DNA from: Helicobacteraceae bacterium
GTDB taxonomy: Bacteria > Campylobacterota > Campylobacteria > Campylobacterales > Sulfurimonadaceae
DNA: 55,952 nucleotides
Assembly: GCA_027859195.1 (NCBI GenBank)
Contig: JAQIBF010000171.1
Coordinates: 1-55,952 of the forward strand
Direction: 5' to 3'
The translations under genes and the position numbers were made by a program. The notes under the pieces were generated by a model, which was not told where the DNA came from, ran no database searches, and saw only the letters and a program-made list of their open reading frames with translations. Of this stretch, positions 5,928-21,840 are shown piece by piece (positions within the stretch are counted from its first letter, which is position 1; each line of letters begins with the position of its first letter).

Positions 5928-7403
5928 CTACTCCGCATATGAGATCGATTCTTTGTTCACTTTCTTGAAAATTAAACTTCTATTCATCTCTTCTGGTGAA
6001 TTACAGCCCGATGCTGCCAATAATTCCCAAAAATCTTCCAAGATGTTTTTGTGGTAATTTTGGACTCTTTTCCATTTTTCAGATACCACTAAACCTCTAA
6101 TAAGTTTTGGGTTATTTGTGGCTACTCCGGTCGGGCATTCATTGGTATTGCACTTCAGGGATTGAATGCACCCCAAGGCAAGCATCATGCCTCGAGCGGA
6201 GTTGCAAACATCCGCCCCAATACAAAGGGCTTTAAAAATATCAAAAGCTGTAAAGATCTTGGTGGCAGTTATAACTTTAATCTCTTTTTTGAGGTTATAT
6301 TGGTTGAGTGTGTCCACAACAAATATCAGCGCTTCTTCCCAAGGCATACCAACATAGTTTGAAAAATCTATGGGAGCGGCACCCGTACCCCCTTCGGCAC
6401 CATCTACGGTTATGAAATCCGGTTTTATATTGGTTGTCACCATCATCTCGCATATATCAATGAACTCTTGTTTGCTGCCTATCGCCAGTTTGAATCCGAC
6501 AGGCTTAAAACCAGACAGTTCTCTCAACTCTCCAACATATTCCAAAAGTCCCTTGGCATCTTTAAAAGTCGAGTGCCCTGGAGGAGAGAGTATATCGGTA
6601 TGGGGTGACACTCCCCTTATTTCAGCTATCTCCTCGTCATTCTTAGCTGCGGGAAGTACACCGCCGTGTCCAGGTTTGGCGCCTTGTGAAATTTTTATTT
6701 CAATCATTTTCACTTGCTCCAAATTCGCTTTTTCTTTGAATTTTTCTGCATCAAAATTGCCATCAGCTCTCCGGCATCCGAAATAGCCTGTACCGATCTC
6801 CCACACTAGATCTCCGCCTTGCAGGTGGTACTCCGAAATGCCCCCTTCCCCCGTATCGTGAAAAAAGTTACCTGCTTTTGCACCGAGGTTCAGCGCTGTA
6901 ATTGCATTTTTACTCAAAGCACCATAACTCATGGCTGAAATATTGAAAAGACTCGCACTGTAAGGTTGTCGGCAATCTTTTCCGCCAATAACAACTCTTG
7001 GCGGTGTTTCCATTTTTTGGGCAGGATAGATGCTGTGTTGCATCCATTTATAATTATCATCATCTATATTGAGCTCTGTACCAAAGGGGTGTGTTTCGCT
7101 CTGTTCTTTGGCTCGTTCGTATATGTAATTGCGATGATTTCTATTAATGGGTTTGCCATCGGTATCTGATTCCACAAAATATTGATGAAGCTCCGGGCCA
7201 TTCATTACCAATAAATAGCGCATATGCCCAATAAAAGGAAAGTTCCTAAGAATCGTATGTTTTTACTGAAATAAGTCATAAAATCCAATTAATGTGAGCA
7301 AGGTTGCAAGAGCGGTAATACCAGGCAAAGGCCATATAAACACGCCTGTAAGTATGGCAAAAGTCAGTAGTGCCATTATTGTAAATCTAATAGCTTTCTT
7401 CAT
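5928..7403 (-). pseudogene. Membrane-anchored FMN-binding glutamate synthase family protein with in-frame TAA at codon 47 (7263-7265)
   Basis: ATG 7403 gives MKKAIRFTIMALL...IGFYDLFQ*KHTILRNFPFIGHMRYLL, in frame with the 5928-7223 ORF (ISAMSYGALS, TGEGG, KISQGAKPGHGG, DGAEGGTGAAP, CIQSLKCNTNECP). Confidence 0.8.
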
Positions 7404-7409
7404 TGTGTA

Positions 7410-9149
7410 TTACAATAACTCTCGTAAGTATTTCAGATCACTCTTGGTTGTATCTACGATGTCTGCAAATTTTCCATTTAGCATTAATTTTGCCATGGAT
7501 TGCGCATAGCCTTTCATTTGGTCAAACGTTATGGAAGGCGGCATTGCCAGAGCATTAGGGTCTGTGAAAATATTGATGATCGCAGGGCCCTTATGTTTAA
7601 ATCCATTGATAAGCGCTTGTTCCACATCTTTGGATTCTTTGGCTTCCCATGCTGCAATGTTCATGGATTCCGCCAGTTTTACAAAGTCAGGATTTACCAT
7701 GTCGGTTTGCCAATTCACATAGCCTTGAACCCGCATTTCAAGTTTTACCATGCCCAGAGTCCGATTATTAAAAATGATGATCTTGACAGGGATCTGATAT
7801 TGGCTGATCGTCATCAAATCGCCCAAAAGCATGGAAATACCGCCGTCACCGCAAAAAGCAATTGTTTGTCGATGAGGATGTGACAGGCCAGCTCCAATGG
7901 CCATTGGCATCGCATTCGCCATCGACCCATGGTTGAACGACCCGGTCAGGTAGCGGTTCTTGCCTGCTTTCAGGTAGCGTGCAGCCCATACGGCACTCAT
8001 CCCTGTATCAACCGTAAATATTGCATCGTCATCTGCCAATTTATTCACCAAATAGGCAACATATTCGGGGTGGATGTTTTTTTCGGATCCCTTTTCTTCT
8101 ACATAACTGTCATATATAGTTTCAATTTCTTGATGCAGGGAACGCATTTTGTCAAGGTAATCAGTAGAAGTTTTTGCTTCAACCAGTGGCATCAGCTCTT
8201 GCAGCGTTGGTTTTATATCGCCACAGTAACCGTAGTCAACTTTAGCTTTACGCCCTAATTTTTCAGGCTTCGTGTCAATTTGAATTATTGTACATTTTTC
8301 GGGAAGGAACTCACTGTAAGGAAAATCTGTACCCAACATCAAAAGGAGATCGGCTTCGTGCATGGCTTCAAAACCTGCTTTGCTGCCCAAAAGTCCATTT
8401 AATCCAACGGCATAGGGATTTTCTTTACGTTCAAAAAATATTTTTCCTCTAAAACTATAACCCAAAGGCGACTTAAGCATTTGTGCCAGCTGCATGACTT
8501 CATCGACTGCATAACGACACCCATGTCCGCAAAACAGCATCACTTTTTCATGGGAGTTGATGATATCTGCAAGTTCAAGCAGATCTTTATGATCTGGAAT
8601 TATTGTTGGTTGTGTATAGAAGTTTTTATTGGAAGAGTGCACAGACTCCATTTCGGCTGCAGCCACATCGCCCGGAAGCCCAAGAACAGCAACCCCCTTC
8701 TGGCTTATGGCATGCTGAATTGCAGTTTGTATGCCATTGATGGCTTGTTTAGGTGTATTGGCTTGAAAGACATATTTCGAACAATCCTGAAATAAAGATT
8801 CGGGTCTTGTCTCTTGAAAGTTGTCCAGACCCATTTTTTCGGTATGAATGGTTGAGGCAATAGCAATCACAGGGTTTTCAGATTTGTTGGCATCATATAG
8901 CCCATTGACCAAATGCACATGCCCGGGTCCGCTACTTCCCATGCAGCAGCCGATGCCGTTGAGCTCAGCTTCCATGGAAGCCGCATAGGCTCCGGCTTCT
9001 TCATGTCTGACATGTATCCATTGGAGTCTGCCATCTCTTCGTACAGCGTCATTTACCGGATTAAGACTGTCACCTGTTACCCCATAAACTCTCTTTACAC
9101 CTGCTTCTACAAGCATTTCTACTAAATGGTCCGATATATTTTTTGACAT
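7410..9149 (-). CDS. poxB: TPP-dependent pyruvate oxidase / ubiquinone-dependent pyruvate dehydrogenase
   Basis: GVTGDSLN, HVRHEEAGAYAA, GSSGPGHVHL, SFNHGSMANA, GDGG TPP motif, LGMVKLEM. Confidence 0.88.
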   Translation of the reverse strand: MSKNISDHLVEMLVEAGVKRVYGVTGDSLNPVNDAVRRDGRLQWIHVRHEEAGAYAASMEAELNGIGCCMGSSGPGHVHLVNGLYDANKSENPVIAIASTIHTEKMGLDNFQETRPESLFQDCSKYVFQANTPKQAINGIQTAIQHAISQKGVAVLGLPGDVAAAEMESVHSSNKNFYTQPTIIPDHKDLLELADIINSHEKVMLFCGHGCRYAVDEVMQLAQMLKSPLGYSFRGKIFFERKENPYAVGLNGLLGSKAGFEAMHEADLLLMLGTDFPYSEFLPEKCTIIQIDTKPEKLGRKAKVDYGYCGDIKPTLQELMPLVEAKTSTDYLDKMRSLHQEIETIYDSYVEEKGSEKNIHPEYVAYLVNKLADDDAIFTVDTGMSAVWAARYLKAGKNRYLTGSFNHGSMANAMPMAIGAGLSHPHRQTIAFCGDGGISMLLGDLMTISQYQIPVKIIIFNNRTLGMVKLEMRVQGYVNWQTDMVNPDFVKLAESMNIAAWEAKESKDVEQALINGFKHKGPAIINIFTDPNALAMPPSITFDQMKGYAQSMAKLMLNGKFADIVDTTKSDLKYLRELL

Positions 9150-14669: not shown

Positions 14670-14837
14670 CCGACATCGCCGCCGAGTAAATACAACAGAA
14701 ATATTCCCAACTGGCTCGACTCCGTCATCATGAGGGCGATCGCTATGGACGTTTCGGAACGCTACCAACACTACTCCGAGTTTTTTTTAGCTATGGTTTT
14801 TATAGAAATTGCTACAATACTCTACTTTACTACATAA
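14670..14837 (+). pseudogene. Remnant of the C-terminus of a Ser/Thr protein kinase (kinase/phosphatase type)
   Basis: Start-less frame PTSPPSKYNRNIPNWLDSVIMRAIAMDVSERYQHYSEF plus a short TM; resembles kinase subdomain XI. Confidence 0.5.
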
Positions 14838-14874
14838 ACAGATCTCTACATCAAGAGACTGCCAAAGGACTCTT

Positions 14875-15405
14875 ATGCGTATTTTTCTCGCTCTTTTTCT
14901 TGCCTTGTTGATCGGCGGATGTTCGTCGCTGAAAGTGGCAACCGACTATGACCCTGACGCTGACATCAGCGCTCCAAAAAGCTTTGCGATCGTCCATAAA
15001 ACGCTCGAAGGTGAAGACACCTTGACTGCCGACCGTATTATTGCCGCATTACAAAATGAGCTCAAAGCCAAAGGGTACACCGAAACAACCCAAGAGAGTG
15101 CTGACTTTTACATCCTCTTCCACACCGGGGTCACGTCCAAAACACGTATCGACACCGACTACCAATATGTCAACATGTACCCTTACTCCTACGGTTACGG
15201 CTACCAAACAATCGCTATCCCCCAGACACGTACCTACACCTATGATGAGGGAAAACTGATCGTCGATGCTGTTGTTCCCCAAAAGAACAAGATCATCTGG
15301 CGCGGTACTGCGGTCGATTATCTTAAAAGTATGAAAACACCCCAAGAGAAGACAAATTATATTAACAAAGTTCTCAAAGCATTGATGCAAAAGTTTCCAA
15401 AATAA
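14875..15405 (+). CDS. DUF4136 family lipoprotein
   Basis: Lipobox LIGGC, DYDPDAD, YDEGKLIVD, IIWRG, C-terminal FP. Confidence 0.8.
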   Translation: MRIFLALFLALLIGGCSSLKVATDYDPDADISAPKSFAIVHKTLEGEDTLTADRIIAALQNELKAKGYTETTQESADFYILFHTGVTSKTRIDTDYQYVNMYPYSYGYGYQTIAIPQTRTYTYDEGKLIVDAVVPQKNKIIWRGTAVDYLKSMKTPQEKTNYINKVLKALMQKFPK

Positions 15406-15464
15406 AGACTATTTTTAGGCGTCGCACTCTATACTCATCGTATAGATGGCAATAAGGAGTTTGG

Positions 15465-16793
15465 ATGGGTGACTGGTTTTATCGTCTCTTGCATTATAAA
15501 AAAACTTCAGAGCCTATACTTCATGACTTTGGACGCGATATTAATGCCCGGATCAACCCCCAAGAGCATCAGCTTTTCAACCAGGCCGTAGAAGCTTTCC
15601 GTGAAGGAAAAAAAGTAGAAGCTTTTGAATACTATCTCCGTTCATTGGAGAACTTCAACGCCGGTGTGTCTAACGAGAATGTACGGATTCACTATGAAGA
15701 GGAGGCGCTGCACTTTGTACTTTATCAGGGAACTGCCGTTGTACACGGTGTGATCACTGACAAGACATTTCAGGCCAACACGGTCATAACCAGCAAGGCA
15801 CTGATGAATGTTGCCGTAAAACGCCACATTTTAGAACGCAACGAGCTGCTAACCTATGTCTGCTACTATACTCACAGTGACTTTTTGGAGCTCAAGCTCT
15901 ATCTTGACAACACCACGATGACACCCCAAAAGATCTTCTACCCGCTCCGCGAACTGGCCCTTAACGCCGACTATGAAAAAGAGTACCTGCACTATCACTT
16001 TAAGCAAGAACGGTTGACAGAAGTAGAGCACCTTCAAAAGATTGACGAGAACGAGCTTCGGATCAAATACGACGCCATGCAAAAGTGGATCGAAGAGTGC
16101 CAAGAAGAGTTGACACAGCTTCCGGCCAATGACAACATCAGCACCGTCTCTTTTACCCTTTTGAGACTCCTTTTTCAGATAGACTACCTGCTCGTTCCGC
16201 ATAAAGATATGATGCAGGAGATCTTTGAAAAGGTCAACAGCTATTTTACGGACGATGAACGTCTAGTCGATCAGAAAAACGATGAGCTGCTCGTCTGTAT
16301 TCAAACCTTGCAAAAACTCGAGTTCACAGCGTTCTCATCGCAATTTTACAAGGCGCACTACACCTTTTCACCGATGGAGCACACCACCTCAGAAGAGCTG
16401 AACCAGTTCATAGAGGGTTCCCTTGAGAAGTACCGCTGGTTCAGACAGCACCGTTATGATCATGTTGCCTCCACCATCAACCGTTACATTCCGCTATACA
16501 TCCTGTACAACTACGGCCTGCACCCTTCCTACCGGACGCTTGTACACCTGCTTGTCGAGATCCAGAACAGTGATTTTTTTGTTTCGCTCGGATACAAGCC
16601 CTTGTACCATACCGAGAGCAAGCGCTTTGAGAAAGATGCCATCGTCAAGGGTATTGATGCTGCAATAAGACCTTATAAAGAGCAGTTCACCCATCTTAAA
16701 GCTTTTGGAAAGACTCTCGACTATACCACACTGGAGGAGTTCAGTCACAGTTTTTTTCTACACCTGAAAAACCTGAACTATACCGAACGATGA
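15465..16793 (+). CDS. Hypothetical protein with probable YbjN/T3SS-chaperone-like domain
   Basis: 442-aa ORF, AAGGAG RBS, ATGA overlap with the downstream protease gene. Confidence 0.7.
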   Translation: MGDWFYRLLHYKKTSEPILHDFGRDINARINPQEHQLFNQAVEAFREGKKVEAFEYYLRSLENFNAGVSNENVRIHYEEEALHFVLYQGTAVVHGVITDKTFQANTVITSKALMNVAVKRHILERNELLTYVCYYTHSDFLELKLYLDNTTMTPQKIFYPLRELALNADYEKEYLHYHFKQERLTEVEHLQKIDENELRIKYDAMQKWIEECQEELTQLPANDNISTVSFTLLRLLFQIDYLLVPHKDMMQEIFEKVNSYFTDDERLVDQKNDELLVCIQTLQKLEFTAFSSQFYKAHYTFSPMEHTTSEELNQFIEGSLEKYRWFRQHRYDHVASTINRYIPLYILYNYGLHPSYRTLVHLLVEIQNSDFFVSLGYKPLYHTESKRFEKDAIVKGIDAAIRPYKEQFTHLKAFGKTLDYTTLEEFSHSFFLHLKNLNYTER

Positions 16794-17881
16794 ATACACA
16801 GACCATACTGCAGACCTACATCAACAACATCATCCAGATCAACACCCCTTACGGCAGCGGCAGCGGTTTTGTCATCGGCAAACTTATCATCACAAATTCC
16901 CATGTGGTCAGCGGCCTCAAAGAGGTGGTGATCTCCGCTAAAAAGATCAAACGACAAAAGGCAACCGTCATCTATGATGACCAGGTCGTGGACCTTGCCT
17001 TCATTGCACTCCCGCCTCTCGAGATAGACAACCCCCTGACCTTGGCGACAGAGGCGGTGCATGACGGCGATATCGCCATAGCGGTCGGCCACCCTTACGG
17101 CCTTAACTACTCTGCAACAGAAGGGATCGTCTCAAAAGCAGACCGCTTGGAGAACGAAATCGAGTACCTCCAGATCGATGCCGCCATCAACCCCGGCAAC
17201 AGCGGCGGTCCGGTGCTTAATGTCAACGGCGAAGTCATCGGAGTCAACACCTTCATTTTGCTCAACACACAAAACCTCGGATTCGCCCTTCCCTACTACT
17301 ATGTCCGTGAGGCGCTCGACACCTTCAATGCCCTCAATACAACCAACATCATCCGCTGTTTCTCCTGTAAAAACCTCATTGAAGAGGCGAATATAGAGAA
17401 TGACTTCTGTCCCCGCTGCGGGGTTAAACTTGATGTTGCAAAACAGCGGCGTCTTGGATACCGCCCATCGGGGACAGTCGCCCTTATCGAAAAGATACTG
17501 GCATCCATGAATGTCGATGTCACCATCGCCCGAGTGAGCCAGCGCAGCTGGAAGTTTGACGAAGGCAGCGCCCGCATCAACATCATCTTTTATGAGAACG
17601 GCATCATCATGGCCGACGCCTGGCTCTGTAATATGCCCAAAGATAACATCGAAGCGATGTATGACTATCTTCTGAACAAAAACGGCAGCTTCAACTACCT
17701 GCACTTCTCCATCAGTGAAAACACCATCATCCTCTCCTACCTCATCATCGACTCCTCACTCACCTTTGAAGAGGGTAAAATCGGCCTCCAGCGTCTTAAA
17801 AAGGCGGCGAATAAATATGATGATATTTTGATCGAGAAGTTTGGGGCGACACGCCCGAAAAGGGATGAAAATGAGTTTTAA
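16790..17881 (+). CDS. Trypsin-like (S1C) serine protease with zinc ribbon and YbjN-like C-terminal domain
   Basis: GSGF, ITNSHVV, DLA and INPGNSGGP triad motifs; CFSC...CPRC; no signal peptide or PDZ. Confidence 0.85.
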   Translation: MNTQTILQTYINNIIQINTPYGSGSGFVIGKLIITNSHVVSGLKEVVISAKKIKRQKATVIYDDQVVDLAFIALPPLEIDNPLTLATEAVHDGDIAIAVGHPYGLNYSATEGIVSKADRLENEIEYLQIDAAINPGNSGGPVLNVNGEVIGVNTFILLNTQNLGFALPYYYVREALDTFNALNTTNIIRCFSCKNLIEEANIENDFCPRCGVKLDVAKQRRLGYRPSGTVALIEKILASMNVDVTIARVSQRSWKFDEGSARINIIFYENGIIMADAWLCNMPKDNIEAMYDYLLNKNGSFNYLHFSISENTIILSYLIIDSSLTFEEGKIGLQRLKKAANKYDDILIEKFGATRPKRDENEF

Positions 17882-18257
17882 AATACGAAGAAGATCAATA
17901 ATAAAAACAGGACTCTTTCTCACGATTTACATTACCTTTTCAGGCTGTAGTGTGACCAATATGCTTCAACCGGACGCCGCAAATGTCCAGATATCTGAAA
18001 ACATGCCAAACAGTGTCGAATGTACCTATCTTGGGGAAGTCATCGGGGCCGAAGGTAAACTCTATAACTACTTGTTTATCTCCAACTATGATTTGACAGA
18101 GGGTGCACGTAATGACCTACGGAACAAAGCGCATGCACTCGGCGGCAATGTTGTGCAGATAGAAACAAGATCTTCGTATTATTCAACATCGACGGTGTAT
18201 GTAGGAAATGTCTACCGATGCCCTGATATCAAATATACAGAGACACCTCATTTATAG
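17871..18257 (+). CDS. DUF4156 family lipoprotein
   Basis: FSGC lipobox, CTYLGEV, GARNDLRNKAHALGGNVV, YRCP. Confidence 0.75.
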   Translation: MSFKIRRRSIIKTGLFLTIYITFSGCSVTNMLQPDAANVQISENMPNSVECTYLGEVIGAEGKLYNYLFISNYDLTEGARNDLRNKAHALGGNVVQIETRSSYYSTSTVYVGNVYRCPDIKYTETPHL

Positions 18258-18260
18258 TCA

Positions 18261-18839
18261 CTATTTCTCAAGTTTTTTAGCCGTATCGTAGACCAGTTCA
18301 TAATAGCGGTTACTGTTATACTCGAACTCCTGGATGACCTCAAGCCCGAGTTTTCGGGTATGGGCTGCGTAAGAGCGCGGGTTGATTTTGTTGATGAAGG
18401 TGACCAAAATAGGAAACCGCTTTGCCATATGTTCGCGGGAAAAATCAAATATCTCTTCCAGAAGCCCACTTCCCCGGACACTTTTGTCGATGCAGACCGG
18501 TCCATACTGGTAGGAGTTCTCGACACTTAACCTCTGACCCAAATACTCCAGATCACCCAAGCCTATTATCATGTGAGCGAACATCGGCCACGATGACCAA
18601 AAGTGCCACGACGCCGCCATGACATAGGCAACCACCTTTTCGTCATCTCTTGCGATAAACAGTCCGCTTTCTTCATTGATAAGAGTGGTTAACTGCTCTT
18701 TGGTAAATGCTGTTGTCACAAAGCCGTCTTTCTTATCGTCTACGTGGATAGAGTCTACCTGGTATCTGTAATGCAGTGTCAATACATCATCGATATCACT
18801 GAGTTCGGCTATTTTAAATCGCAGACCATCTCTTTTCAA
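18261..18839 (-). CDS. GNAT family N-acetyltransferase
   Basis: DGFVTT, YGPVCIDKSVRGSG, FINKINPRSYAAHTRKLG; TTG start after GGAG. Confidence 0.85.
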   Translation of the reverse strand: MKRDGLRFKIAELSDIDDVLTLHYRYQVDSIHVDDKKDGFVTTAFTKEQLTTLINEESGLFIARDDEKVVAYVMAASWHFWSSWPMFAHMIIGLGDLEYLGQRLSVENSYQYGPVCIDKSVRGSGLLEEIFDFSREHMAKRFPILVTFINKINPRSYAAHTRKLGLEVIQEFEYNSNRYYELVYDTAKKLEK

Positions 18840-19105
18840 ACTTCTATCTCCTCACTAAGGTAATGCACGGGTTCCATCCCAGCACCCTGCATCATGTTAA
18901 AGAAGAACTGGGCCAGCTTTGCGTCACGAAATGGATCCTTAGAGTCAACATTATTGACCTCTCAAATGACCCGGCTTTTGAGCAGCAGCGTATGAAGATC
19001 TTTTGCTGTTTCATTACCCTTGTAGACTATAGCCAGGGATCCTCCGTTTACACCGATCTTTTTTAGTGTTTTGTACGCTGCCCAATGCACATCGATAGGA
19101 GAGCT
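18836..19105 (-). pseudogene. yceI-like gene, 3' part (interrupted by IS110; internal TGA at 18962-18964)
   Basis: SSPIDVHWAAYKTLKKIGVNGG...VI*EVNNVDSKDPFRDAKLAQFFF, with YceI-type W.AYKT..K.GV and RD..L..FFF motifs. Confidence 0.6.
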
Positions 19106-19107
19106 CG

Positions 19108-19113
19108 TATACT
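19108..19113 (+). promoter_or_regulatory. -10 box (TATACT) at the IS left end, candidate circle-junction promoter for the bridge RNA
   Basis: TATACT lies 2 nt inside the left end; analogous to IS621 junction promoters. Confidence 0.5.
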
Positions 19114-19119
19114 ACAAAT

Positions 19120-19345
19120 AACCACTCAGGTGGTACTATTATCAAACGGTAGAACGAGTTAGGATTAGCATATTGGACGAGAGCTAGACCAGTCTTACTG
19201 AGTCTGTAAAAAAGTTTAATAGCTAAACCCAAATCCTGAGTGGAAACGTAGTCAGAGTTTACCTCTAGACTGTATGTACGAGTATAGGTTAGGTTTAGCT
19301 GCAAGATCAAGCAAACGAGCATTTGCTCTAACGAACTCTACCGAT
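19120..19345 (+). ncRNA. IS110 bridge RNA with target-binding loop (19171-19221) and donor-binding loop (19221-19300)
   Basis: Stems tattgga/tttaata, agac-cagt/actg-gtct, agctaaacc/ggtttagct and agtc-agag/ctct-gact. Guides LTG 19177-19185, RTG 19209-19214, LDG 19240-19247 and RDG 19277-19282 match the flanks and ends. The exact RNA boundaries are inferred. Confidence 0.85.
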
Positions 19346-19362
19346 TTTCATTGGAGGTTCTT

Positions 19363-20376
19363 ATGAACAAGTATATCGGAATCGATGTTGCTAAAGCAAC
19401 TTTACAAGTATATATCCCTAAAAGTCATACAGACCTAGAGTTCGAGAATAGTCCTGGTGGACTCAAGAAACTCTATGCCGTGCTAAAAAAACAATACCAA
19501 GATGAATACCCATCACTCATCTTTGTCTATGAACCCACTGGAAGCTACTCTACTTTGCTAGATCGTTTTAGTATGCAGCACTCTATTGACTGTTTCAAGG
19601 TCAAGCCTTCTCAAAGTGCCTCTTTTTCCAAGAGCTTAGACAATCGTAATAAAAGTGATAAGATCGATGCAAGGCTATTGCATAAAATGGGTGCTATTGC
19701 CAGACAAAAAAATATTGCTGTTCCTCACCTTGACGAAGATGCCCATTTCTTGCAGTCTCTTTACAAATACCTTCGTCGCATCGTCAAAGAGACTACTGCT
19801 CTTAGTAACTACTTAGAAGCATCTTTACTTCATCAAGAAGATCCTTTTATTATCAAGCGCCTTCGTTCTAAAATCAAGCGTCTTGAAACAGAAGAAAAAG
19901 AGATAACACAGAAAATCTTGACGTTCATCAAACAGAATAAAGCCTATAACAATGACTTTGAGAACATCACATCTATCAAGGGTGTTGGACCTGTTGCCGG
20001 TATCGCTCTCTTTTACCTCTTTTTACGTTACCCGGATATCTCTCGTAACAAACTCACGGCACTTTGCGGACTTGACCCTGTGACTAAGACTTCTGGCAGC
20101 TCCGTCAATAAAAAAGGTCACATCTCCAAGCAAGGGAACAAGATCATCAGGAGCACGCTCTTTATGCCTGTACTTTGTGCGACAACATTCAATCAAGAAC
20201 TCAAAACCTTTTATGAACATCTTAAACGCAATGGAAAGCACTCTACTGTCGCGCAAGTCGCTGTCATGAAAAAACTGATACTTTTAGCTTATTCTCTTTA
20301 TAAAAACAATCAAAAATATGACCCTCATAGATTTCTGAAATATCAACAGCTCAAGCAAGAAAACCTAATAATGTAA
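19363..20376 (+). CDS. IS110 family transposase/recombinase (DEDD RuvC-like + Tnp20 domain)
   Basis: YIGIDVAK, VYEPTG, NKSDKIDA (D-E-D-D), SIKGVG, GLDPVTKTSGSS (catalytic Ser), ISKQGN; GGAGG RBS. Confidence 0.95.
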   Translation: MNKYIGIDVAKATLQVYIPKSHTDLEFENSPGGLKKLYAVLKKQYQDEYPSLIFVYEPTGSYSTLLDRFSMQHSIDCFKVKPSQSASFSKSLDNRNKSDKIDARLLHKMGAIARQKNIAVPHLDEDAHFLQSLYKYLRRIVKETTALSNYLEASLLHQEDPFIIKRLRSKIKRLETEEKEITQKILTFIKQNKAYNNDFENITSIKGVGPVAGIALFYLFLRYPDISRNKLTALCGLDPVTKTSGSSVNKKGHISKQGNKIIRSTLFMPVLCATTFNQELKTFYEHLKRNGKHSTVAQVAVMKKLILLAYSLYKNNQKYDPHRFLKYQQLKQENLIM

Positions 20377-20412
20377 ATCCATCTATATTCAGACTTTTTA
20401 AAGGTGGAAACT

Positions 20413-20490
20413 TTTTGGTTTCGTTTTTTGCGGTGTAAAAAAGAAAGAGCAGTCGATAAAAGTCAAGAAATCAATTTAGTTTCAAACCCA
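20413..20490 (-). pseudogene. Degraded 5' part of the yceI-like gene right of the IS110
   Basis: Frame ...FTPQKTKPK joins SSPIDVHW once the IS is removed; upstream hydrophobic signal-like sequence is broken by stops/shifts. Confidence 0.45.
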
Positions 20491-20541
20491 TTTTTTCAAG
20501 AAAAATTACAATTAAGGTTTATTAACTACCAATTAAAAGAG

Positions 20542-21840
20542 CTATGTTTTACTATTGGTGACAATAGCAAAAGTAAGATCATTGATCTCCGTATGCTTCT
20601 TGATATAGGCATTTAGATCATCAAGTCCCAATACTTTGATCTTCTCAAGCTCTTTAAGGCTGGAACCCAGTTCCTGGCCTTTGTAGTACTCCTGAAAAGT
20701 ACGGGAAAGACGCTGAGAGAGAGTCTCGACGCGAAGCGGTTCAGAACCAAGCAGAAACTTTCTGGCCTGGTCAAGCTCAGCCTGCGTTACCCCCTCTTTT
20801 ACAAAAATAGAGATGACCTCTTTTACGGTTTCTTCAGCCTCTTTTTGAGACTCAAGTTTTGTCTGCAGGTAACCCGAAAAGTAGACATTAGAACGGGCTG
20901 CATTGACACGGGCATAAGCAGAATAAGCCAGACCGCGTTTGACACGGATCTCTTCCATCAAGCGACTGCCGAAACCGCCCATACCCAGAATGTAGGTCGC
21001 AACACGTGCTTTGTACTCATCTTCATCACCCACTTTGATGTTGTAGGGAGAGCCAAAGTAGACATAGGCCTGTTCAGTGTCACGCTCAAGTACCGTACGC
21101 TCACTCTTCTTAACCACCTCTACATATGGCAGAACACTCTCTTCACCTTTGGAAAGTGTTTTTAAAAGTGCCGTCGCTTTCTCTTTGGCTTCGGACATTG
21201 AAATGTCTCCACCGACTACGACCACTGCTTTTGAAAGCACAAGATGCTCTTTTAAGAAATGCTTGATGTCATATGATGTTAATCTTTTTACATCATCAAC
21301 CGTTCCATTAGAGGGGTGTTCCAGAAGAGTACCGTCAAACAACTCTGCTTTTAAGGCTCTATCCGCCACATAATCGTAATCATTCTCTTTACGGCTCAAA
21401 GCCCCTATTGTGACTGCTTTCACCTTGTCCAGTGTCTCTGTATCTAAATTTGGGTCTGTTAACAGATCTTCAAATTTTTCCAGCGCATAGTCAAAAGACT
21501 CTTTAAGTGAGGACAGTTCAATGACAAATGTTTCTGTACCGGCATGAGCACTTAAGTGAACTGCTTTCGCATCCAGCACTTTTGCGAAACCGATACTCCC
21601 CAGTTTGGACGTTCCTTCGTTCATCATTTTCGCACTCATCTTGGCCAGACCCGGTATCTTTTTATCTTCGATAGAACCGCTTTGTTTAAAGACCAGCTGC
21701 ATAGAGACCATTGGAAGACGGTTATCTTCTTCATGGATAAGAGGAACATTGACACCCTCGATAGTAATATAGTTTATACTCGAAGCCATAGAGATTCCTT
21801 GAATTAATAGTAGTAAAAATAGAATATTTTTGATGATCAT
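20542..21840 (-). CDS. M16 family (pitrilysin-like) peptidase, non-catalytic subunit type
   Basis: GGFGSRLMEEIRVKRGLAYS; HxxEH replaced (GLAKMSAKMMNEGT); signal peptide. Confidence 0.88.
   Translation of the reverse strand: MIIKNILFLLLLIQGISMASSINYITIEGVNVPLIHEEDNRLPMVSMQLVFKQSGSIEDKKIPGLAKMSAKMMNEGTSKLGSIGFAKVLDAKAVHLSAHAGTETFVIELSSLKESFDYALEKFEDLLTDPNLDTETLDKVKAVTIGALSRKENDYDYVADRALKAELFDGTLLEHPSNGTVDDVKRLTSYDIKHFLKEHLVLSKAVVVVGGDISMSEAKEKATALLKTLSKGEESVLPYVEVVKKSERTVLERDTEQAYVYFGSPYNIKVGDEDEYKARVATYILGMGGFGSRLMEEIRVKRGLAYSAYARVNAARSNVYFSGYLQTKLESQKEAEETVKEVISIFVKEGVTQAELDQARKFLLGSEPLRVETLSQRLSRTFQEYYKGQELGSSLKELEKIKVLGLDDLNAYIKKHTEINDLTFAIVTNSKT

Follow-up and report, generated by a model that had tools for sequence, protein, structure and literature searches.

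IS621 of Escherichia coli is an insertion sequence (IS) with an IS110-group bridge recombinase and a bridge RNA of 177 nt, as described in passages of PMC11208160 and PMC11208158, and a long left end with a short right end is the layout given for the IS110 group (in passages of PMC11208160). The present study concerns positions 19104–20412 of a 55,952-nt contig from a Helicobacteraceae bacterium (Campylobacterota; Sulfurimonadaceae in the GTDB lineage; JAQIBF010000171.1, positions 1 to 55,952 of the forward strand, assembly GCA_027859195.1); the whole contig is referred to as the window. This segment is very probably an intact IS110-group IS, with a left end (LE) that codes for an RNA of two loops, likely a bridge RNA. 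The observation is confirmed at a level far beyond chance. Family membership, the conservation of the anatomy, and covariation of two independent kinds all support its interpretation; the RNA-guided mechanism is proposed by homology to IS621 (passages of PMC11208160 and PMC11208158). The mechanism class itself is already known, and the element is well supported as a further ortholog of the IS110 bridge type.

The element and IS621 resemble each other in protein, target, and RNA. The recombinase contains PF01548 and PF02371, and its catalytic D/E/D/D and Ser-Gly residues align with those of IS621; the core is CT and the target is a repeated element; and the RNA of the LE has a 5′ stem-loop, a target loop, and a donor loop. 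The left target guide (LTG) has 9 nt in the sense of the top strand, and the right target guide (RTG) and right donor guide (RDG) are reverse complements. The arrangement of these guides with the left donor guide (LDG), which a first-pass annotation of the window had likened to that of the IS621 bridge RNA, is borne out by the orthologs, in which the loop strands follow the flanks and ends in the sense that the IS621 model requires. The bulged A of each inner hairpin and the G-containing linkers ahead of the guides are similar to the flipped-out A and syn G nucleotides of IS621 (passages of PMC11208160 and PMC11208158), and by this analogy a nucleotide-by-nucleotide correspondence to IS621 may be proposed. 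The differences should also be recognized. The proteins match only distantly, the alignment being gappy in a coiled-coil region; the RTG has 7 nt as opposed to 4 in IS621; the loop domains are not separated by a linker, one strand serving as the 3′ side of the target stem and as the 5′ side of the donor stem; the LDG reads CG rather than CU at the core; and the LE carries an additional 3′ hairpin as well as a conserved CUAACGAACUCU ahead of the ribosome-binding site.

ISCro4 (IS622), a bridge recombinase that has been used in human cells (passages of bioRxiv 10.1101/2025.05.14.653916; Protein Data Bank (PDB) entry 9t56), belongs to the same family (phmmer E 5.7e-21) but is an enterobacterial relative of IS621. 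ISPpu9 and ISPpu10 of Pseudomonas putida are inserted in repetitive extragenic palindromic (REP) sequences or conserved intergenic repeats (PMC12288879 and bioRxiv 10.64898/2026.03.19.712850), and resemble the window element as multi-copy IS110 elements in many copies of one intergenic repeat, but the host phylum and the repeat differ and the likeness is one of description only. Among the papers searched, none joins IS110 with Sulfurimonas, and the Campylobacterota are not mentioned in the bridge-RNA papers among them, supplementary ortholog tables apart; in the main-text passages of the study that screened 72 orthologs (bioRxiv 10.1101/2025.05.14.653916), Campylobacter, Helicobacter, and Sulfur are likewise unmentioned, supplements apart. 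The supplementary ortholog tables of these papers may already include the element.

Boundaries, Copies, and Insertion Sites

The IS110-type element occupies 19106–20410 on the plus strand, with a CT core on either side, and the whole with its cores is 19104–20412. It is composed of a non-coding LE of 257 nt (19106–19362, +), which contains the putative bridge RNA and with which the identity between copies begins when the conserved target is set aside, the intact recombinase gene (19363–20376, +), and a right end (RE) of 34 nt (20377–20410, +), located from the junctions of the genomic copies and terminating in GGTGGAAA, the left donor half. The left target half AGGAGAG and the CT core at 19104–19105 precede it (19097–19105, +; flank AGGAGAGCT), and the CT core at 20411–20412 with the right target half TTTTG follows it (20411–20417, +; CTTTTTG). 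The start of the LE, CGTATA(A/C)T, is kept in orthologs, and the LE terminus CGTATAC... and the RE terminus ...GGTGGAAA form no inverted repeat.

These limits follow from junctions shared between copies and from single-CT empty sites. The window is contig C41 of a 187-contig assembly in which many contigs break inside the IS. Four left junctions (the window, C69, C108, and C115) have the same start base and seven right junctions (the window, C92, C104, C111, C114, C133, and C183) the same end base, and contig C84 begins with the final two bases of the element. Every left junction reads ...GAGAG-CT/CGTATAC and every right junction GGTGGAAA/CT-TTTT, the slash marking the boundary. The left flank is ACGAGAGCT in C108 and C115 (9/9 against the LTG) and TCGAGAGCT in C69 (8/9); the right flank is CTTTTTT at six of the seven right junctions (7/7 against the RTG) and CTTTTTG in the window (6/7). 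The empty sites (for example, those in C67 and C53) read ...CGAGAG-CT-TTTTT... The boundaries 19106 and 20410 that had been put forward for the window copy are therefore those of the other copies as well, three further left and six further right junctions agreeing with them, and the proposed CT core is present once in empty sites and duplicated around the element. The copies are 100% identical across their assembled portions, including the ends, which suggests recent activity. The element accounts for part of the fragmentation of the host assembly.

The preferred target, ACGAGAG-CT-TTTTT, sits in a modular intergenic repeat of roughly 250–300 bp and about 30 copies, to which the flanks of most copies of the IS, left and right, belong. 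A loose pattern occurs at 32 places in the genome, two of which (in C126 and C166) do not align with the repeat family. Examples of the repeat lie at about 800–1100 of C67 and at about 6300–6600, 8250–8500, and 8950–9200 of C182, and positions 20411–20470 of the window are its right part. The location of the preferred target in a repeated intergenic element accounts for the many copies of the IS. Every exact copy of the 14-mer ACGAGAGCTTTTTT in the genome is occupied; single-mismatch sites number 10, of which 7 fall within the repeat, and 36 sites differ at two positions. The IS has thus filled each exact target copy in the repeat, in addition to at least one gene hit. The repeat was also considered as the terminus of a larger mobile element, an idea that was rejected as the genes around nine copies differ, indicating a dispersed repeat. 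It contains hairpins such as CCCGACAGCTGTCGGG, with the IS target ...GCCGTCACGAGAG-CT-TTTTT... inside, and an Rfam scan of four loci carrying it gave no match.

The right flank of the window copy is this repeat, but the left flank is not. In a genome of the same genus (relative L061), the homolog of the window left flank (18872–19084, 72% identity) directly adjoins the homolog of the right flank of the copy in C183 (79% over 1397 nt; the C183 flank is on the minus strand after the IS end). As the C41 left flank and the C183 right flank adjoin in the relative, one insertion entered AGGAGAG-CT-TTTTT, a 13/14 match to the guides, which a by-eye reading across the relative places near the 5′ end, inside a small gene on the minus strand. 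In the window, the contig joins the left junction of this insertion to the right junction of an insertion in the repeat, reflecting either recombination between copies or an assembly chimera. This qualifies the proposal that the guides match the element's own target: each half matches, but the two flanks belong to different insertion sites, and the statement is true half by half.

The flanks are the basis for an alternative explanation in which the window copy is a non-functional relic or an assembly artefact, a chimeric contig over a collapsed repeat whose arrangement may not exist in the cell. The adjacency of the C41 left and C183 right flanks in the same-genus genome and the 187 contigs, many ending inside the IS, are in accord with it. 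However, the element is complete, its 337-residue frame is open, and all catalytic residues are present; the 100% identical ends of the copies point to recent activity, and a chimeric contig alters the flanks and not the element. A non-functional copy is therefore improbable.

The Recombinase and Its Relatives

The open reading frame (ORF) at 19363–20376 (+) encodes 337 amino acids and is preceded by GGAGG (19353–19357). The product matches PF01548 (DEDD_Tnp_IS110; E 1.6e-15, 57.6 bits against a cut-off of 29), PF02371 (Transposase_20; E 1.3e-15), and the NCBIfam model NF033542, “IS110 family RNA-guided transposase” (165.5 bits against a cut-off of 140). By phmmer, its sole solved relatives are the transposases of IS621 (PDB entry 8wt6, E 8.3e-22) and ISCro4 (9t56, E 5.7e-21). 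Asp8, Glu57, Asp99, Asp102, and Ser244-Gly245, the last pair within TSGSSV, align opposite Asp11, Glu60, Asp102, Asp105, and Ser241-Gly242 of IS621, which are its catalytic residues (passages of PMC11208158); the earlier statement that the DEDD and SGSS motifs are kept is therefore right.

Three full relatives, with 89 and 86% amino acid identity (from metagenome-assembled genomes (MAGs) of Helicobacteraceae and Sulfurimonadaceae) and 53% identity (from a Campylobacteraceae MAG), are consistent with the assignment of the element as a Campylobacterota ortholog. Among 401 genomes sampled from the order, 33 (its own included) contain a match to the recombinase at E up to 1e-40. Its own genome also contains a second, diverged IS110 element with an intact frame (C182:6692–8003, corresponding to L002:1501–2812; genome G000), which has 72% DNA identity and 64% protein identity with the window element.

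Predicted Structure of the Left-end RNA

More than 200 nt of upstream sequence is present in 26 of 34 loci, and 19 LEs from Campylobacterales, the window included, were aligned (alignment A4). The others were left out because they are cut by contig ends (L032, L033, and L050), because long insertions push the boundary beyond the stretch taken (L034 and L046), or because the boundary is unrecognisable in the alignment or N is present (L042 and L044). RNAalifold on this alignment recovers the donor domain together with the 3′ hairpin and a ribosome-binding-site helix; of the 32 pairs, 23 show compensatory changes. For a manually drawn structure on the MAFFT alignment, 90.0% of the cells are paired and 29 of 35 pairs have changed on both sides, values reached by none of 500 shuffles, and pairing falls to 29.5–42.2% of cells when the 3′ partners are slid by 1–3 columns. 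On the plain MAFFT alignment, differences in hairpin length leave the inner target hairpin paired in only 66% of cells; folds of individual sequences give it, with a bulged A on the 3′ side, in nearly all sequences, and it is 96.6% paired on the model-based alignment. A covariance model built from the 19 sequences finds 28 sites across 34 sources, 9 of them outside the seed, and its only match in the window, at 19162–19301 (+; 114.5 bits, E 5e-20), lies inside the LE; the calibration of this score is rough and the sequence is in the seed. On the model alignment, 97.8% of cells are paired, 27 of 30 pairs have compensatory changes, and each helix is at least 95% paired, but these values lean toward the structure as the alignment was fitted to it.

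The RNA contains one layout twice: a stem, a G-containing linker, a left guide, a hairpin with a bulged A, a G-N linker, and a right guide. In the target-binding loop domain (19165–19226, +), for which the stems were assigned from pair counts and folds and the guides by permutation, the stem is formed by TTAGC (19165–19169), the bulged A19170, and TATT (19171–19174), paired with AATA (19218–19221) and GCTAA (19222–19226). It encloses, all on the plus strand, a conserved unpaired GG linker (19175–19176), the LTG ACGAGAGCT (19177–19185), the inner hairpin with bulged A19201 (19186–19205), a GT linker (19206–19207), the 7-nt RTG AAAAAAG (19208–19214), and a candidate handshake-like UU (19215–19216). 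The outer stem originally drawn for this loop is retained in its TATT/AATA part, but the GG that follows is the linker and not stem. In the donor-binding loop domain (19222–19299, +), in which the helices are 98–99.5% paired, the stem GCTAAACC (19222–19229) pairs with GGTTTAGC (19292–19299) and a second helix joins CCT (19235–19237) to AGG (19286–19288). Within it, on the same strand, are a GA linker (19238–19239), the LDG GTGGAAACG (19240–19248), the inner hairpin with bulged A19267 (19250–19271), a GT linker (19272–19273), the RDG TACGAG (19277–19282), and a candidate handshake-like UA (19283–19284). The donor stem and both inner hairpins, as they had been described, are recovered by RNAalifold and by pair counts.

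The strand 19222–19226 has two partners. It pairs with 19165–19169, extending the target-loop stem beyond the bulged A19170, with compensatory changes at all five pairs and about 90% of cells paired, and also with 19295–19299 in the donor-loop stem, which is 99.5% paired. Sharing one strand, the extension of the target stem and the donor stem are mutually exclusive, and both are supported by compensatory changes. The ensemble energies of the window RNA with either helix enforced are −39.3 and −39.4 kcal/mol, and the two are isoenergetic; over 23 orthologs the median difference is 2.4 kcal/mol in favour of the donor stem (range −3.7 to +6.5). It is conceivable, although doubtful, that the bridge RNA of this clade is bistable by design, with GCUAAA (19222–19227) shared by the partners 19165–19169 and 19294–19299, so that a single molecule could have either its target loop or its donor loop fully stemmed at one time. 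If true, this would be a sequence-encoded division of labour between two RNA molecules, as in the synaptic complex of IS621, where there is a linker between the two domains and the loops of one complex come from two RNA molecules (passages of PMC11208160 and PMC11208158).

A hexamer resembling a −10 element, TATACT, lies 2 nt inside the LE (19108–19113, +); it is TATAAT in most orthologs and is kept as TAT(A/C)(A/C)T in all 19 aligned LEs. The combination TGCACA-16-TATACT matches 9 of 12 consensus positions, TGCACA falling in the flank of the window copy, and from its sequence we infer that the box acts as a promoter. It is followed by the 5′ stem-loop ACCAC-TCAG-GTGGT (19121–19134, +; −6.6 kcal/mol), which 1% of shuffles match in folding energy; some hairpin is present at this position in 13 of 19 orthologs. 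Beyond the donor domain, the 3′ hairpin AGCAAA...TTTGCT (19310–19327, +) is 93% paired with compensatory changes at six of six pairs. A conserved GAACT (19333–19337) is predicted to pair with GGTTC (19356–19360), a helix (19333–19360, +) with compensatory changes at two pairs in which GGTTC overlaps the ribosome-binding site GGAGG, and a role of this helix in translational control is possible. The conserved CUAACGAACUCU lies ahead of the start codon in the region 19328–19360. By eye only, AACUCU also fits an interrupted upstream AGAGUU (about 19153–19158) in a closing helix around the whole RNA; this strand of the closing helix also fits the helix at the ribosome-binding site.

Guide Strands and Their Covariation with Flanks and Ends

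The strings and coordinates given for the flanks and guides in the first-pass annotation are all present in the sequence. The LTG ACGAGAGCT agrees with the left flank AGGAGAGCT at 8 of 9 positions, as claimed. For the RTG, AAAAAG (19209–19214) is indeed the reverse complement of CTTTTT (20411–20416), but the strand is better read as the 7-nt AAAAAAG. For the LDG, GTGGAAAC (19240–19247) is identical to 20404–20411, that is, to the last seven bases of the RE plus the core C, but its ninth base, G19248, mismatches the core T. The RDG TACGAG is the reverse complement of CTCGTA (19104–19109), as had been noted. Against the RE/LE junction, the donor strands of the window thus match at 8/8 (LDG) and 6/6 (RDG) positions. 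In 20000 mononucleotide shuffles of the 257-nt LE, the four matches arise singly 484, 3291, 89, and 1244 times and jointly never.

The proposal that the guides covary with the flanks of each copy was tested across Campylobacterales with one representative per near-identical clade (n = 14 for the left side and n = 12 with the right end in the locus; clade duplicates L023, L024, L029, L043, and L049 were dropped and the right end is absent from L041 and L053), and was upheld for both target guides. The LTG matches its cognate left flank at a mean of 6.79 of 9 positions and non-cognate flanks at 4.19 (14 representatives), and the RTG matches its cognate right flank at 6.67 of 7 and non-cognate flanks at 3.93 (12 representatives); in neither case did any of 20000 permutations reach the observed sum, and both results still hold at 0/20000 when the non-core positions alone are considered. 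Examples of RTG and flank are GUGGGAG with CT-CCCAC in L025, CUCCAAG with CT-TGGAG in L035, and ACACAG with CT-GTGT in L048. The LDG matches the right end at 8.08 of 9 positions (non-cognate, 7.17; 0/20000) and tracks the GTGG/GTAG and A/C/T changes of the right end, and the RDG matches the left end at 5.50 of 7 (non-cognate, 5.13; 41/20000). Four controls in the wrong sense or the wrong loop, in which the LTG was compared with the reverse complement, the RTG with the same sense, and the strands of the donor loop with the target flanks, are null, the observed sum being reached in 14804 to 19821 of 20000 permutations. It should be noted that the related elements in these tests are not wholly independent and that the donor-strand tests are low in power as the ends vary little.

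The diverged copy in C182 differs from the window element at 8 of 9 LTG positions and in the RTG, and its inner target hairpin has changed from CAGT/ACTG to CGTC/GATG, whereas the donor-loop guides are identical; judged from its sequence, this copy would be a natural reprogramming of the target loop. In a clade with 52–53% identity (L025:166 and L029, oriented position 1246), the left junction has TT and the right junction CT, and correspondingly the LTG ends in UU while the RTG reads a CT core, so that the two halves of the target loop specify different core dinucleotides.

The bases that follow the right guides were compared with position 7 of the opposite substrate. The base 3′ of the RDG forms a Watson-Crick pair with target position 7 in 8 of 14 representatives (567/20000) and a pair with wobble allowed in 12 of 14 (126/20000); the U 3′ of the RTG faces donor A7 in 17 of 19 sequences; and in the window the RDG-side handshake base and target position 7 form a G-U pair only. 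These counts would agree weakly with the handshake-guide idea set out in passages of PMC11208158.

Proposed Mechanism and Alternative Interpretations

The covariation bears directly on a second alternative, that the structured LE is only a cis-acting 5′ leader controlling transposase expression, for example by hiding the ribosome-binding site, with the protein picking the target and the loop-flank matches being incidental. The conserved GAACT that can pair with GGTTC at the ribosome-binding site, with its compensatory changes at two pairs, is what such a leader would contain. However, the loop strands change with the flanks in the predicted sense and loop, and the wrong-sense and wrong-loop controls are null, which makes an exclusive leader function very unlikely; moreover, a leader role is compatible with a guide role. 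The IS1111 group (seekRNA type) shares the protein family, with a DEDD/Ser recombinase and a two-loop RNA guide, but its RNA is in a long right end with longer subterminal inverted repeats (passages of PMC11208160). That the window element belongs to this group, with its guide RNA in the right end, can practically be dismissed, as its RE has only 34 nt and its LE 257, the model match and all covarying loops are in the left end, and its long-left/short-right layout is that described for the IS110 group in passages of PMC11208160.

In the preferred interpretation, that of an IS110-group element with a bridge RNA in its LE, the element would excise as a circle joining GGTGGAAA-CT-CGTATA, and transcription of the RNA would be driven by the TATACT box immediately within the LE. 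In the target loop, the RTG AAAAAAG would base-pair to CT-TTTTT on its top strand, and in the donor loop, the LDG GTGGAAAC and the RDG TACGAG would likewise hold the circle junction. Strand exchange at the CT core would be carried out by recombinase tetramers via a phosphoserine intermediate at Ser244.

Several points weigh against this interpretation. The guide match of the window copy is imperfect, at 8/9 for the LTG and 6/7 for the RTG, its flanks are drawn from different loci, and the C182 copy matches its own flanks at only 5/9 (LTG) and 6/7 (RTG) positions. The base at the second core position is G and not U in the window LDG and is often not U in the LTG of orthologs. The LDG test is partly circular, as the RE boundaries of the orthologs were located by a degenerate motif derived from the RE/LDG pattern. 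U19283, the handshake base of the donor loop, could pair with its own donor A7, and in IS621 pairing of the handshake base with its own donor hampers strand exchange (passages of PMC11208158). A search across the assembly for an RE-to-LE circle or tandem junction gave 0 matches, and an Rfam 15 scan of 18800–20700 at E up to 10 gave no relevant family.

The element adds what appears from its sequence to be a cleanly delimited, active bridge-recombinase ortholog from Campylobacterales, with GTGGAAA-CT-CGTATA as donor, ACGAGAG-CT-TTTTT as natural target, and an RTG of 7 nt. As the guides of its relatives already differ, about two dozen of them form a ready-made covariation set, which serves work on guide rules outside the enterobacterial branch of IS621 and ISCro4.

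Additional Observations

In three relatives, orthologs occur as inverted pairs 1.0–1.4 kb apart (G169:C1:541333–544289, G136:C1:1160992–1164340, and G023:C1:1577361–1580538), and L046 has two covariance-model matches on opposite strands. A fragment at C67:639–759 of the host genome shares 80% identity with the 3′ portion of the recombinase gene (window 20201–20321) and lies about 230 nt upstream of an unoccupied copy of the target repeat. The neighbours of the element in the window are both on the minus strand, at 18261–18839 an ORF with a weak match to GNAT-like acetyltransferases below the Pfam cut-off and at 20542–21840 an M16-family peptidase.

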